The notes beneath the pieces were generated by a model. It saw only the letters and a list, made by a program, of their open reading frames with translations, was not told where the DNA came from and did not search any database. From Parvibaculaceae bacterium (GTDB lineage Bacteria; Pseudomonadota; Alphaproteobacteria; RS24): 64,000 nucleotides of DNA. How positions within the stretch are numbered: the first letter of the stretch is position 1; every line of letters starts with the position of its first letter. A program made the position numbers and the translations under genes. Location of the stretch: contig CBDDGJ010000001.1 in NCBI GenBank assembly GCA_965227805.1, positions 34,249 to 98,248 of the forward strand, written 5' to 3'. Shown piece after piece: positions 36,806 through 49,491 of this stretch.

Positions 36806-37963
36806 ATGACGTGTGCGATCTTTCCAAGAGTCTTAACTGTTTTTGGTACGCGACCAGAAGCAATCAAAATGGTTCCCCTGGTAAAGGCTCTTAACGCAGA
36901 CACACGCTTTAACCACAAAGTGTGTGTAACAGGGCAGCATCGTGAAATGCTTGATGAGGTTTTAGATATATTTGAAATAACCCCTGATTTCGATCTTAAC
37001 ATTATGATTTCTAACCAGAGTCTCTCTGATATAACAAGCAAAATTCTTTTAGGGATGCGCGAAATTCTACACCAATACCGACCTGATATTGTTCTGGTTC
37101 ATGGAGATACTTCAACAACATTTGGTGCCGCATTAGCGGCTTTTTATTCCAAAATCAAAGTTGGGCACATAGAGGCCGGTCTACGAACGGGTGATATTCA
37201 TTCCCCTTGGCCGGAAGAAGCTAACCGTAAGCTAACTTCCTCAATAGCTAATCTACACTTTGCGCCAACTAGATCTTCCGCAAATAACTTGATTGCTGAA
37301 GGAGTGGATACCAAAAACATTTATGTCACGGGTAACACAGTTGTTGACGCTTTATTTCTGGCGATTGATAAGATTCAAAACTCTCCAAGATTACTCAATT
37401 ATTTAAAAGCCAAATATAGCTTTCTAAATTCGGGTAACAAAACAATTCTTGTTACAGGGCATCGCCGAGAAAATTTTGGAAGTGGATTCGAAAATATTTG
37501 TAAAGCGCTCGCTATAATTTCTGAGCGGAATAAAGATGTTCAGATATTATATCCAGTTCATCTGAATCCAAACGTTCGAGAGCCAGTTAGTAAATTGTTA
37601 AAAGGAATTGAAAATATACATATTATCGAGCCAGTGGGATATTTAGATTTCGTTTATCTCATGGATAGTGTTCATCTGATCCTTACCGACTCTGGCGGCA
37701 TTCAAGAAGAAGCCCCCTCACTCGGAAAGCCAGTTCTGGTCATGCGCTGCACTACCGAACGTCCCGAAGCTCTCAATGCTGGAACGGTCAAACTTGTTGG
37801 AACGAACAGTCAAAAAATAATTTCAGAAGTTGAGCAATTATTAGCTGATGAACGTTCATATCAAAAAATGAGCCTCGCTCATAATCCCTATGGTGATGGT
37901 AACAGCTGTAAAAAAATTCTCCGTGTGTTGAGTGGTGAAATCGTACAGTCTCAACTCGACTAA
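36806..37963 (+). CDS. wecB: UDP-N-acetylglucosamine 2-epimerase (non-hydrolysing)
   Basis: [27 protein letters not shown], and [28 protein letters not shown]. Confidence 0.9.
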
Positions 37964-38006
37964 ATGATCAACAAAAAATCTAAGCTTCCCCTATAAGGTA
38001 ATCATT

Positions 38007-47089: not shown

Positions 47090-48307
47090 ATGATTGTTTG
47101 GAACGATTTCCGTAATGACGCTCGGGTTCTAAAGGAAGCACAGACACTTCAATCTGCTGGTTATCAGGTGACGGTACATGCTATACATACACCTGGAGTG
47201 ACTCAGAAACATGAAACCCTGCCTTGTGGCGTAAAAGTAGTACGTGTCGCCCGTAGTCCATTGTGGAAATGGCGTAAAAAGAATCTGGCTACGGCTAATG
47301 GTAATACACAAGCGCAGGGGAAAAAGCCATCGGGTCCTATTAAAAAATTATCTCTGAAAGGCCAACTTCTGCGTATTATCGCTCGTGGCTGGACTCACTT
47401 GTGGTTGCTGTATCAGCTAGTGCGTTCCAAGCCAGATGTGGTACATGGTCACGATGTAAATACCCTACCTACAGCCTGGCTGGCCTCGGTGATTGCCCGT
47501 GTGCCTCTGGTCTACGATGCTCATGAGATCAGTACTGATCGGGAAGGTTATGCTAGTTTCCGTAAAGTAGTGGGTTGCATTGAGAAATGCCTTATGCCAA
47601 GAGCAGCAGGGAGAATCACCACTACCGATACCCGTGCCAAGTTTTTTGCACGTGCCTACGGTATTTCCCGACCATTGGTTTTGCAGAATCGATCGCAATA
47701 TCTATTGGTAGATCGTTCTGAAAGAATTCGGAATGAACTTAATTTGCAAGAAAGATGGCCCATTGTGCTCTACCAGGGTGGCTTGCAACAAGGGCGGGGG
47801 CTTGAGCGTATTATTGATGTCGCACAAGAAGTAAAAAACGCTTATTTTGTCTTTATCGGTGGTGGCCGTCTTGAACCTAAATTAAAAAAACAGGCTGCTC
47901 GATTAAATCTTAAAGGTAAGGTGTATTTTATTGATACAGTGTCATTGGATGACTTGCCCTATTACACGGCTTCAGCAGATATAGGTGTGCAGGCAATAGA
48001 GAATACCTGTTTTAACCATTTCTCTACCGATTCAAATAAAGTTTTTGAATATGTTATGGCTGGCTTGCCCGTTATTTCTTCTAACCTACCAGAAATCCGA
48101 AAATTGATAAAAGAATACAGTTTTGGTGTGTTGGTGGAACCTGGATGTAATAATTCTTTAAAAGAGGCTATTCAGCAACTTGTAGATGACAAAATGCTAC
48201 GCTATAAGTTAAGTTGTAAATCCAGTGTTGTAAAAACTAAATTAAACTGGGAGGAGCAGCAATCGAAGTTAATTGATCTTTATACGGAGATCATCCGAGG
48301 CCATTGA
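47090..48307 (+). CDS. Glycosyltransferase family 4 (GT-B)
   Basis: 405 aa. The N-terminal GT4 donor-less domain has HGHDVNTLPTAW. The C-terminal part has ..SADIGVQAIENTCFNHFSTDSNKVFEYVMAGLPVISS, an E-x7-E-like region. Confidence 0.8.
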   Translation: MIVWNDFRNDARVLKEAQTLQSAGYQVTVHAIHTPGVTQKHETLPCGVKVVRVARSPLWKWRKKNLATANGNTQAQGKKPSGPIKKLSLKGQLLRIIARGWTHLWLLYQLVRSKPDVVHGHDVNTLPTAWLASVIARVPLVYDAHEISTDREGYASFRKVVGCIEKCLMPRAAGRITTTDTRAKFFARAYGISRPLVLQNRSQYLLVDRSERIRNELNLQERWPIVLYQGGLQQGRGLERIIDVAQEVKNAYFVFIGGGRLEPKLKKQAARLNLKGKVYFIDTVSLDDLPYYTASADIGVQAIENTCFNHFSTDSNKVFEYVMAGLPVISSNLPEIRKLIKEYSFGVLVEPGCNNSLKEAIQQLVDDKMLRYKLSCKSSVVKTKLNWEEQQSKLIDLYTEIIRGH

Positions 48308-49491
48308 TGCGTATTCTTTATTTGTCTTTTTATTTTGAGCCAGATTTCGGACCCGCTGCAATACGAAACACACTTATTGCAAAAAAATTGTCCGAACATA
48401 ACTCTGTCGCTGAAGTACATGTTATAACAACAATGCCGCATCGGTGGAAGGATAGCTTTAGTCGTTCGGAAAATGGCTCAAAAAAACTAAAAATCTCAAA
48501 AGTTGATACTGCCTCAAAGCATAATGGCATTTTAGGGCAGATTTTTCGCTTTTTTGTGTATCAAAAATTTGTTCGTAAAAGTTGTATATCACAAGATTAC
48601 GACTTGGTTTTTGCCTCATCTTCGAAGTTAGGCACGTCTCTTCTTGGGGCACTGATGTCAAAAAAACTAAAAGCCTATTACTATCTCGATATTAGAGATT
48701 TGTTTATAGAAACAATTGATGATTTTTTACCCGGCAGAATTTTTAAACCGATAAAATTTATTCTGTTTGTTTTAAATAGATATAGTATTAAAAAAGCTCA
48801 TCGCATAAATGCGCTATCAACTTCATTCATAAATCAATTGTCCCAGATAAATAGTGAGGTAAAAATAAGATCCATTTATCATGGAATTGACAGTCAATTT
48901 CTTAATGTTGTTGGCAGGCGCGCTAACATCGATTTTTACAAAAAATCTCGATGCCACAATAAAACACTGCTTTACGCTGGTAATTTTGGTTTCGGGCAAG
49001 GTTTGCATAAATATCTCCCGGCTATATCATCATTGTTACCACCTAATTGGGAAATTCATTTATATGGTGACGGACCTAAAAAGAATGAAGTAGCAGAAAG
49101 TGCTGCTAACTTAAAAAACGTGAAATTATTTCCTTTTGTCGAAAGGAGTGAGTTGCCTGAGATATATTCGAAATCCGATATATTGTTTCTCACACTAAAT
49201 TCTACGCTTGCATTTCAAAACAGTTTGCCTTCAAAAATTTTTGAGTATTGTGTGACTGGCAAGCCAGTTATCGCTTTTTGTAGTGGGTACCTTCAAAAGT
49301 TTATCCTAGAAAATAACATCGAAGGTGTTTACTCCATAAATCAAGATGACTTTGGTAAACTCAGGGAAATATTACCTGAAGTGGAGGGCAAAGAGTTTGA
49401 TCGTACGCTCTTTTTCGAGAAATGGTGTAGAGAAAAACAAGTTAAGTTAATGGTGGACGATATAATTTCATTAGGTTTGAATATCCCCTAG
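48304..49491 (+). CDS. Glycosyltransferase family 4, WbuB/WcaI-like
   Basis: MRILYLSFYFEPDFGPAAIRNTLIAKKL is a WbuB/WcaI-type N-terminus. The C-terminal part has LPSKIFEYCVTGKPVIAF. Its start overlaps the stop of the previous GT gene. Confidence 0.75.
   Translation: MMRILYLSFYFEPDFGPAAIRNTLIAKKLSEHNSVAEVHVITTMPHRWKDSFSRSENGSKKLKISKVDTASKHNGILGQIFRFFVYQKFVRKSCISQDYDLVFASSSKLGTSLLGALMSKKLKAYYYLDIRDLFIETIDDFLPGRIFKPIKFILFVLNRYSIKKAHRINALSTSFINQLSQINSEVKIRSIYHGIDSQFLNVVGRRANIDFYKKSRCHNKTLLYAGNFGFGQGLHKYLPAISSLLPPNWEIHLYGDGPKKNEVAESAANLKNVKLFPFVERSELPEIYSKSDILFLTLNSTLAFQNSLPSKIFEYCVTGKPVIAFCSGYLQKFILENNIEGVYSINQDDFGKLREILPEVEGKEFDRTLFFEKWCREKQVKLMVDDIISLGLNIP

Follow-up and report, generated by a model that had tools for sequence, protein, structure and literature searches.

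In Klebsiella O1, a polymerase and a terminal pyruvyltransferase are encoded by the unlinked locus wbbYZ, which is flanked by transposable elements and occurs on a phage as well; the ABC transporter encoded in rfb exports the product (PMC10629545). The O-polysaccharide of E. coli O9a is ABC-dependent and involves the GT4 enzymes WbdA, WbdB and WbdC and the kinase-methyltransferase WbdD, which has a coiled-coil ruler (PMC3482155, PMC11231755). In the VPS polysaccharide of Vibrio cholerae, VpsA and VpsB provide UDP-ManNAcA, VpsJ carries out the C5 epimerisation of ManNAcA to L-GulNAcA, and VpsH then forms the glycine amide (PMC13463779).

We analysed a stretch of 64,000 nucleotides (the window) from a genome of the Parvibaculaceae. 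Seven co-directional genes had been described at 36806-49491 in an earlier note, and we recovered them as plus-strand ORFs at exactly these positions. They form a horizontally acquired mobile accessory cassette, probably for an acidic amino-sugar surface polymer. By analogy, its closest precedent would be the IS-flanked, exporter-less wbbYZ, whose add-on logic it matches: both are unlinked additions with a polymerase and a pyruvyltransferase, transposable-element flanks, phage relatives, and neither an initiating transferase nor an exporter, a match that concerns gene content and mobile context only. In contrast to wbbYZ, the cassette has seven genes, among them wecB and wecC for the precursor, joins polymerase, pyruvyltransferase and methyltransferase in one protein built around a coiled coil, and adds a tailoring enzyme (C5-epimerase/PP-loop) and a pseudokinase-like membrane protein. 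Its chemistry is predicted to be ManNAcA-based whereas the Klebsiella polymer is a galactan. Unlike the non-specific transporter of Klebsiella, the resident Wzt bears a CBM-like tail.

With O9a, the cassette shares soluble GT4 polymerase or adaptor enzymes, a methyltransferase, a kinase-fold domain, a coiled-coil spacer, a membrane tether and a wecA encoded elsewhere. However, it lacks wzm/wzt, its kinase-fold domain is on a separate six-TM protein without the catalytic Asp/Asn/Asp, and a pyruvyltransferase is an additional capping candidate. The likeness to VPS lies in the wecB/wecC-type pair, an epimerase-like enzyme and an ATP-dependent carboxylate-activating enzyme for the ManNAcA residue. 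Unlike the cassette, VPS is Wzx/Wzy-dependent, with its own initiating transferase and exporter, and VpsJ and VpsH are separate proteins of other families, whereas the cassette fuses PF06662-type and AsnB-like PP-loop domains.

Gene content of the cassette

All seven ORFs are intact and tightly packed (12.7 kb in total) in an IS-rich genome. The sole leader region contains a C(11) homopolymer (36556-36566, plus strand, read from the sequence), 240 bp upstream of wecB. The wecB gene (36806-37963, plus strand) encodes a UDP-GlcNAc 2-epimerase, which makes UDP-ManNAc (TIGR00236, 514 bits, cut-off 210; PF02350, 414 bits), and wecC (38007-39257, plus strand), after a 43-bp gap, a UDP-ManNAc dehydrogenase, which makes UDP-ManNAcA (NF008286, 632 bits, cut-off 459). 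Equivalog-level matches thus support the enzyme identities by which the pair would lead to UDP-ManNAcA.

The wecC gene overlaps the next one (39250-43017, plus strand), which probably begins at the ATG at 39250, in agreement with the start of the homologue in the metagenomic relative L004. It encodes a fusion of 1259 aa, 83-88% identical to the L004 protein, in which profile matches delimit a pyruvyltransferase (residues 27-342, PF04230, PS_pyruv_trans), a TIGR04063-like GT4 module (residues 639-1010, 260 bits, below the cut-off) and a methyltransferase (residues 1103-1205, PF13489, Methyltransf_23). The coiled coil between the first two is encoded by a tandem repeat of 3 x 93 bp (40568-40847, plus strand; 98% identical), i.e., 3 x 31 aa. 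The homologue in L004, shorter by 65 aa, has one repeat unit in the alignment where this one has three; the coiled coil thus varies in length between relatives. We presume that the four-module enzyme acts as polymerase, ruler and terminator in one, a step beyond known examples of the "polymerase plus terminator" design, which would here be extended into a single protein.

A gap of 6 bp separates the fusion gene from that of a 560-aa membrane protein (43024-44706, plus strand), which overlaps by 11 bp the gene of a 781-aa protein (44696-47041, plus strand). The latter fuses a PP-loop, AsnB-like adenylating domain to a glucuronyl-C5-epimerase-like domain (PF06662, C5-epim_C, 94 bits), and the epimerase-like part matches the zebrafish Glce structure 4pw2 (E=5.6e-5). 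The N-terminal part has an SGGIDT PP-loop and a weak match to LarE. There was no direct match to PF00733 (Asn_synthase), even at E<=10, and AsnB is reached from the PP-loop region via homologues only: P0020 (32% identity) passes the Pfam cut-off of that family. At position 2, where we sought the N-terminal glutaminase Cys of the AsnB family, there is no Cys. The fusion is a testable candidate for making L-GulNAcA and its amides outside Vibrio.

The last two genes encode glycosyltransferases. GT4a (47090-48307, plus strand), a GT4 enzyme, follows after 48 bp, matches PF00534, PF13692 and PF13579 and is 83% identical to its orthologue in the metagenomic relatives L003 and L004. GT4b (48304-49491, plus strand), a GT-B enzyme that overlaps GT4a by 4 bp, is 78% identical to the L003 orthologue, and only its C-terminal Glycos_transf_1 half is recognised (PF00534, 46 bits). 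All the glycosyltransferases of the cassette are soluble, with no TM segments, and hydrophobic segments of multi-pass type are found in the 560-aa protein alone.

The AlphaFold2 model of this protein (pLDDT 73.8; 82-93 across residues 410-560) has six predicted TM helices, with very short periplasmic loops, and a cytoplasmic choline-kinase/APH-like fold. This fold spans the C-terminal ~270 residues (Foldseek E=3e-6, probability 1.0), and the best matches are ChoK, LicA, APH and FN3K (E=3e-6 to 1e-4). The family is tiny, with nine matches among 1.84 billion representatives. None of the eight members searched matched Pfam or NCBIfam, the cassette's own protein not even at E<=10, and the protein has no likeness to any transporter family, no transporter-like domain and no ATPase motif. 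The only invariant residues in the eight-member alignment are R222, Q223, P451, P457, P484, G486, L505 and R512, with no invariant Asp, Asn, Lys or His, so the catalytic residues of kinases are not conserved. Conservation is concentrated in TM1 and at the cytoplasmic end of TM6. When aligned by hydrophobic pattern, the positions of the HxD...N catalytic loop and of the metal-binding Asp read HPF...I and G/W, in a tentative residue-by-residue mapping onto APH(3')-IIIa. The domain thus shares the predicted fold of the ChoK/APH kinases, but it lacks conservation of the HxDxxxxN loop and the metal-binding Asp and is fused to a six-TM domain without known relatives. It is predicted to be catalytically dead, i.e., pseudokinase-like.

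The 560-aa family adjoins the same GT4 subfamily (39-88% identity to the GT4 module here) in six of seven independent contexts. Apart from this protein, neither the cassette nor four related loci (L003, L004, L010 and L017) encode a multi-TM protein, and no other membrane component of the module is conserved. The 560-aa protein may be a scaffold or an alternative export route. The cassette thus draws attention to a very rare and uncharacterised family of pseudokinase-like membrane proteins that accompanies a single GT4 subfamily. Its role, once known, could explain how the membrane organises soluble polymerases or, with lower probability, uncover an export route of a new kind.

Mobile context and divergence

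Insertion sequences lie on both sides of the cassette. On the left, directly after gatB, is ISc (33153-34442, minus strand), an IS3-type element of ~1289 bp (rve/rve_3/HTH_21) with at least six copies in the genome at 97-100% identity. The adjacent remnant of a phage-type tyrosine integrase (34443-35230, minus strand) retains only Arm-DNA-bind_3 and Phage_int_SAM_3, with no catalytic domain, and is truncated at both ends, by ISc and by ISa. The latter, an IS3-type element of 1203 bp with rve domains (35231-36433, plus strand), is the left bracket of the cassette; its terminal inverted repeats are GGTAATCCCCCC and GGGGGGATTACC, and at least 15 near-full copies occur in the genome at 98-100% identity. 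On the right, a 124-bp fragment of the left end of ISa (49661-49784, plus strand; 100% identical to 35231-35354) is followed by an inverted, broken ISa with rve ORFs (49784-52041, minus strand), in which ISa positions 420-696 are missing and ISb (~1276 bp, rve ORFs, 50347-51622) is nested. Two ISa copies thus flank the cargo as in a composite transposon. Yet ISa is present in so many copies that this flanking could be coincidence, and there is no matching target-site duplication at the outer ends, where the flanks read GGTG on the left and GGGTT on the right. The cassette is absent from 40 relatives, including the congener, whose synteny ends at gatB.

The composition of the cassette had seemed mosaic by eye, a view that is partly right. 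Compared with the 5-kb segments of the genome (n=838, mean GC 0.465), GC is 0.30 in the 560-aa gene, 0.36 in the 781-aa gene, 0.43 in GT4a and 0.35 in GT4b, and the segment 41500-46500 is the lowest of all 838. The further suggestion, that genes of different origin were brought together in this genome, is not borne out, because distant relatives (L003, L004 and L010) have the same per-gene GC pattern: the mosaic belongs to the cassette and predates its arrival here. Relative to a metagenomic relative, dN/dS is 0.10-0.44 across the seven ORFs (0.44 for the 560-aa gene against L004), and synonymous divergence is uneven from gene to gene (dS 0.23-0.55), consistent with earlier recombination between variants of the cassette. 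L010 has the same gene set in other fusion states. In L003, homology stops at the stop codon of GT4b and an unrelated gene comes next.

Initiation and export

The genes that the earlier note had looked for and not found are indeed lacking in the cassette. In profile searches, no initiating transferase, Wzx, Wzy, ABC-2, OPX or PCP family matched any of the seven proteins, and neither the 560-aa protein nor the glycosyltransferases concealed a transporter or initiating-transferase domain. No [AG]x4GK[ST] motif (Walker A) occurs in the six frames of 36000-50000, and no dedicated Wzm/Wzt pair (ABC-2, ABC_tran or Walker A), which an ABC-dependent O-polysaccharide locus would normally encode itself, lies in 36-50 kb.

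The genome-wide search that the note had proposed revealed a WecA-type gene and a Wzm/Wzt pair, but no transferase of WbaP/PglC type (Bac_transf, PF02397). Two genes have PF00953, mraY and a WecA-like gene (C3:67388-68449; PF00953, 118 bits; TIGR02380, 276 bits, E=5e-82, below the cut-off of 326), the latter kept in 14 of 15 genomes of the family. Its presence is consistent with WecA-type initiation on Und-P, possibly encoded off-locus. A single Wzm/Wzt pair of glycan type (Wzt_C matched weakly) lies at C3:8996-11085, in a second accessory glycan island that itself lacks an initiating transferase; the locus is low in GC, IS-flanked, and missing from the congener and almost all relatives searched. 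In systems already described, a CBM-like tail such as that of the resident Wzt restricts export to chains with one particular terminal cap. LptD is present, OPX proteins (PF02563; Wza/KpsD type), the mark of group 2-type capsule or other OPX-dependent export, are absent from the whole genome, and no protein matched PF01943 (Wzx) over the cut-off, the weak matches being MatE and COX2. The single PF04932 protein (C3, ~642 kb) was considered as a Wzy and assigned instead as a WaaL-type ligase. Judging from the genes, a chain made wholly in the cytoplasm by soluble glycosyltransferases with no Wzy, and with terminator or ruler modules, would fit an ABC-dependent pathway.

We find it somewhat more probable than all other accounts together that the cassette directs the cytoplasmic assembly of a ManNAcA-based polymer and relies on functions encoded elsewhere in the genome; initiation and export are most likely borrowed in this way. 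WecB and WecC would make UDP-ManNAcA, and the chain would start on undecaprenyl phosphate by the WecA-type transferase, or be built onto the resident O-polysaccharide. Primer or adaptor sugars would be attached by GT4a and GT4b, and elongation would fall to the GT4 module of the 1259-aa enzyme. The 781-aa fusion would convert ManNAcA to L-GulNAcA by C5 epimerisation and activate the carboxylate at C6 so that it can be amidated. Capping would be the task of the pyruvyltransferase and methyltransferase modules, spaced by the variable-length coiled coil, and the 560-aa protein might tether or regulate the soluble GT4 enzyme at the membrane, a more speculative step. Export would use the genome's only Wzm/Wzt, and ligation its single WaaL-type ligase. 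Among the three options of the earlier note (supply in trans by a core locus, deletion by IS activity, a non-canonical route), the gene content agrees best with supply in trans, although the Wzm/Wzt locus is not core. Several observations count against it: this pair is itself accessory, the tail of its Wzt suggests cap-specific export, the WecA-like protein is below the NCBIfam cut-off, and the canonical pathway does not explain the constant membrane partner. Moreover, an ORF with Walker A or an ABC ATPase is missing from all six related loci (each of up to 17 kb), so the module would, as a rule, have to depend on a foreign exporter.

The same absence would be explained if the 560-aa protein and the GT4 enzyme formed a self-contained, undescribed synthase-like translocation route, without ABC transporter, Wzx or Wzy. 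PelF and PelD are a comparable pair, a soluble GT4 with an inner-membrane partner that has a degenerate enzyme domain. The soluble GT4 polymerase, making ManNAcA/GulNAcA polymers, may then be the partner of the 560-aa protein. The intact ORF under a dN/dS of 0.44, the tiny and specific family, its GT4 neighbourhood, its standing as the only multi-TM protein in five loci and the conservation in TM1 and TM6 speak for such a route. Yet the protein resembles no transporter, has no ATPase motif, and six TM helices with very short periplasmic loops are small for a polymer channel. Nor is it indispensable, since related GT4/PP-loop/pyruvyltransferase modules in L024 (49% identity in the GT4, 28% in the methyltransferase, 42% in the PP-loop and 33% in the C5-epimerase) and in L026 do without it. 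The contigs examined are also short, so exporters may lie just beyond their ends. We hold this self-contained route to be rather unlikely, and give the same low credence to the 560-aa family being the membrane half of a secretion route without ABC, Wzx/Wzy or GT2-synthase machinery.

The cassette could also be a recently landed, non-productive passenger without a compatible exporter, silent or yielding a dead-end intermediate, and bound to decay. It has IS copies on both sides (98.6-100% identical, which makes the events recent) and an integrase remnant cut at both ends, it is absent from all relatives searched, the C(11) tract of the leader could switch expression off, and the purifying selection measured mostly reflects history in other hosts. 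However, its seven ORFs are intact over 12.7 kb despite the IS-rich genome, and every function needed in trans is present. Und-PP-linked intermediates that go no further are as a rule toxic, so rapid inactivation would be favoured by selection. We regard this outcome as unlikely. It is quite improbable that the glycosyltransferases extend lipid A-core (LOS) on the cytoplasmic face, with MsbA flipping and Lpt carrying the product, which would make initiating transferase, flippase, polymerase, ligase and dedicated exporter all unneeded. The soluble GT4/GT-B enzymes are of the family of core transferases such as WaaG, kinase-fold proteins such as WaaP and KdkA act on the LPS core, and LptD is encoded, but a coiled coil of variable length, set between a GT4 of polymerase type and modules for capping, speaks for a polymer and not for a short core extension, and the kinase-like domain lacks catalytic residues. 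The loss of the cassette's own wzm/wzt or other export genes by IS-mediated deletion is very improbable. The right border has IS fragments, nested insertions and a 277-bp deletion inside ISa, and the lack of a target-site duplication indicates rearrangement. Removal of export genes itself found no positive support: the L003 cluster also ends at the last glycosyltransferase gene, before an unrelated one, the six related loci have no Walker A ORF, and L010, L012 and L017 have no exporter within 15-17 kb.

If the cassette does rely on functions borrowed from its host, it would be another case of surface-antigen diversification by a module that plugs into host initiation, export and ligation, carried by IS elements or phages. 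The related module of L024 is placed between the tail/lysis genes and the integrase of a prophage.

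Gene content and predicted chemistry of the glycan cassette

The cassette consists of seven plus-strand genes at window positions 36806-49491 that overlap or are spaced by at most 48 bp, and the ORF listing reproduces exactly the coordinates that the earlier note had given for this run of co-directional, tightly packed genes. wecB (TIGR00236, 514 bits) and wecC (NF008286, 632 bits) come first. They are followed by genes encoding a 1259-aa fusion (PS_pyruv_trans, residues 27-342; GT4, 639-1010; Methyltransf_23, 1103-1205), a 560-aa protein (43024-44706) with no Pfam or NCBIfam match, a 781-aa protein matching C5-epim_C (94 bits), the GT4 protein GT4a and, last, GT4b, a GT-B protein of which the Glycos_transf_1 half alone was matched. 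The fusion gene probably starts at the ATG at 39250, since its homologue in the metagenome locus L004 starts at the equivalent position. The best NCBIfam match of its GT4 domain is TIGR04063 (260 bits, under the cut-off). Domain matches and a motif scan likewise upheld what had been claimed of the cluster's content: the six-frame scan of 36000-50000 returned no Walker A motif, and Pfam and NCBIfam searches that included matches up to E<=10 and all eight members of the 560-aa protein's family found no hidden transporter or initiating-transferase domain in this protein or in the glycosyltransferases. Among the cluster proteins, multi-pass hydrophobic segments occur in the 560-aa protein only.

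Over its C-terminal third, the 781-aa protein matches the zebrafish glucuronyl C5-epimerase 4pw2 (E=5.6e-5). Its N-terminal part carries an SGGIDT PP-loop and no Cys2; it gives a weak match to LarE directly, and its homologue P0020 exceeds the Pfam cut-off for Asn_synthase. With UDP-ManNAcA as precursor, C5 epimerisation would yield L-GulNAcA, whose carboxylate the AsnB-like domain, having no glutaminase, would then activate so that an amide can form. For Vibrio VPS, this series of steps has recently been attributed to VpsA/B, VpsJ and VpsH (PMC13463779). The fusion of a PP-loop domain to a C5-epimerase is noteworthy. The 1259-aa enzyme contains a coiled coil encoded by three 93-bp units with 98% identity, of which the L004 homologue, 65 aa shorter, aligns one unit instead of three. 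This fits a spacer of variable length between capping and polymerase modules, like that of WbdD- and WbbB-type systems (PMC3482155, PMC11231755).

A rare membrane protein with a kinase-like domain

The AF2 model of the 560-aa protein, built from eight family sequences (pLDDT 73.8), has an amphipathic N-terminal helix, six transmembrane helices (31-59, 74-111, 126-153, 157-174, 180-205 and 211-240) whose loops on the outer side are very short, a linker modelled with low confidence, and a C-terminal domain with pLDDT 82-93. In Foldseek searches against the PDB, the matches were choline kinases, LicA, APH enzymes, FN3K and homoserine kinase II (E from 3e-6, probability 1.0, TM-score of about 0.5 on the target). 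In the alignment of the eight family members, no Asp, Asn, Lys or His is kept in every sequence; full conservation is confined to R222 and Q223, where TM6 ends, and to P451, P457, P484, G486, L505 and R512. When aligned by hydrophobic pattern with what we take to be the catalytic segment of APH(3')-IIIa, the catalytic Asp falls on F458, the Asn on I463 and the metal-binding Asp on G476. The absence of invariant catalytic residues and this mapping make it very unlikely that the predicted kinase-like fold is an actual kinase.

No family member has a Pfam match, and the family profile, searched against PDB sequences, had no match either. The two ABC-2 permeases of the genome were considered as possible kin and rejected (profile-profile probability 0.1%). 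The family is rare: one close homologue (63% identity) was found among 5.8 billion proteins, HMMER run over all 1.84 billion representatives gave nine matches, and scanning 185,579 species genomes by pattern gave none. That such a rare, pseudokinase-like membrane family is tied to a single GT4 subfamily is noteworthy.

Relatives, composition and mobile context

The metagenome loci L003/L004, with a DNA identity of about 85%, share with the cassette wecC, the genes of the four-module 1259-aa enzyme and of the 560-aa protein, GT4a and GT4b. After the membrane gene, the 781-aa gene persists in its first 33 codons (L003:4516-4614, L004:5844-5942) and the remainder is missing; this remnant is a deletion scar and shows that the ancestral cassette already had the epimerase/PP-loop gene. 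L010 has the full gene set, with the pyruvyltransferase split from the GT4-methyltransferase and the C5-epimerase protein fused to GT4a. In L011, L012-L014, L015 and L017, the family has as partners wecB/wecC, a GT4 of this subfamily (39-57% identical to the GT4 module of the cassette) or both, and in L017 the PP-loop domain is a separate protein. L016, with the most divergent family member, has none of these neighbours. Compared with L004:4172-5854, the membrane gene has 63% protein identity and a dN/dS of 0.44, against 78-89% amino-acid identity and dN/dS of 0.10-0.34 for the flanking genes. The membrane gene thus evolves fast, though under constraint, and it is the most AT-rich of the cassette; membrane components of glycan loci are often like this. 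dS varies along the cluster (0.23-0.55), a pattern that suggests recombination among cassette variants.

The genome (2.11 Mb, four contigs, GC 0.44-0.49) has a mean GC of 0.465 in 5-kb windows (sd 0.026), and positions 41500-46500, at 0.358, lie below all 838 of them. It encodes GcrA, a protein whose known distribution suggests an alphaproteobacterium. GC per gene, in gene order, is 0.40, 0.41, 0.40, 0.30, 0.36, 0.43 and 0.35. The description of 43-47 kb as AT-rich and of 47.1-48.3 kb as close to the core was thus roughly right, but its reading as a sign of assembly from different sources is not supported for this genome. The same pattern, with the membrane gene lowest and GT4a highest, recurs in L003/L004 and L010, so the mosaic is a property of the cassette and not evidence of assembly in this genome.

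Upstream, gatA/gatB end at 32990 and are followed by the IS3-type element ISc (33153-34442) and by an integrase remnant (roughly 34443-35230) that retains arm-binding and SAM-like domains only. The cassette itself is bracketed on the left by ISa (35231-36433, 1203 bp) and on the right (49661-52041) by a 124-bp ISa fragment and an inverted ISa copy lacking 277 bp, with ISb nested inside. These elements are multicopy in the genome (ISa at least 15, ISb at least 10, ISc at least 6). A composite transposon is thus no more than possible, the outer IS ends having no matching target-site duplication. None of 40 relatives, the congener included, has the 560-aa gene. Synteny with the congener stops directly past gatB and the genomes are rearranged, so an empty site cannot be defined there. 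The sole tRNA-like gene of the window is a tmRNA gene (16603-16922, minus strand); no tRNA near the integrase remnant marks a place where the island might first have integrated. Just beyond the right bracket lies a minus-strand gene (52195-54063) whose 622-aa product matches PPC and, in its tail, Por_Secre_tail-like models; it is unrelated to the glycan cassette.

A version borne by a prophage was found in L024/L025 through homologues of the PP-loop domain. Identities to the cassette are 49% for GT4, 28% for the methyltransferase, 42% for the PP-loop domain and 33% for the C5-epimerase-like protein. The module (in L024:7558-14616, on a 57-kb metagenome contig) is flanked by tail-fibre, tail-spike and endolysin genes and, next to it, by the prophage integrase. 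The interval between tail/lysis genes and integrase is the classical site of lysogenic-conversion genes, and such cassettes use the assembly and export machinery of the host. The integrase remnant of the window and the L024 integrase are no more than distant relatives, and a 566-aa protein beside the latter is not a member of the 560-aa family. Past this integrase lie a partial second GT4 C-terminus (52% identical to residues 970-1036 of the 1259-aa enzyme) and an ORF resembling a methyltransferase; it appears that the phage, on integrating, replaced the end of a homologous glycan gene of the host.

Missing functions and competing explanations

The genome encodes no PF02397 protein. PF00953 is found twice, in MraY and in a WecA-like gene that stands alone near lptD; this WecA-like gene (67388-68449 on C3, a contig of the genome) is kept in 14 of the 15 family genomes. 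Of the two PF01061 permeases, one adjoins a Wzt-type ATPase (ABC_tran and a weak Wzt_C match). This pair belongs to a second glycan island (C3:1456-17960) with a 1523-aa GT4/FkbM/methyltransferase enzyme, GT2 genes, and GDP-sugar (GDP-6-deoxy-sugar) and CMP-sugar genes; like the cassette, this island lacks an initiating transferase. The other is an orphan ABC-2 type permease of 301 aa (C3:466644-467549) adjoining gcrA, with no ABC ATPase ORF of at least 150 aa beside it. There is one PF04932 ligase-type protein, PF02563 (OPX) is absent, and the only PF01943 matches are weak ones, to a MatE pump and a COX2. Given this genome-wide inventory, the sole recognisable glycan route runs from WecA through Wzm/Wzt to a WaaL-type ligase. 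The suggestion that a core locus supplies the missing functions in trans therefore stands in that the needed genes are present elsewhere, but the Wzm/Wzt island is not core: it is accessory, of low GC (0.394) and flanked by IS, and the congener and almost every relative searched lack its Wzm/Wzt genes.

In its precursor genes, soluble GT4 polymerase/adaptors, methyltransferase, kinase-fold domain, coiled coil and wecA located elsewhere, the cassette resembles ABC-transporter-dependent O-polysaccharide systems, from which it differs in having no exporter at its locus. The nearest published precedent for this lack is the wbbYZ locus of Klebsiella O1, a polymerase and a terminal pyruvyltransferase between transposable elements and also on phage, whose product is exported by the ABC transporter of another locus (PMC10629545). 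This fit in gene content and this precedent lead us to favour, with modest confidence, a mobile add-on glycan cassette whose missing functions are supplied in trans, in which the 560-aa protein would tether or regulate the GT4 enzyme at the membrane. The explanation is thus mostly an ordinary one, a host-dependent mobile cassette.

The alternatives appear improbable to different degrees. The cassette may be a recent, non-productive passenger, as its IS brackets and its absence from relatives might suggest; we regard this reading as unlikely. A self-contained route through the 560-aa protein, also rather unlikely, has on its side that the family member is the sole multi-pass membrane protein in L003, L004, L010 and L017, and against it the lack of any transporter domain in the family. 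We think it quite unlikely that lipid A-core is extended directly and flipped by MsbA; such a route would need no exporter at the locus. Least probable, and very doubtful, is the loss of export genes through the surrounding IS: no Walker A ORF is present across six related loci, and the noteworthy recurrence of the module without an exporter spans six independent contexts.

A scan for promoters and terminators gave 39 against 43.5 and 16 against 10.0 in observed against shuffled sequence, with no usable signal. The 372-bp leader from the IS end to wecB contains an uninterrupted C(11) tract (36556-36566), a candidate slipped-strand on/off switch for the entire cassette.
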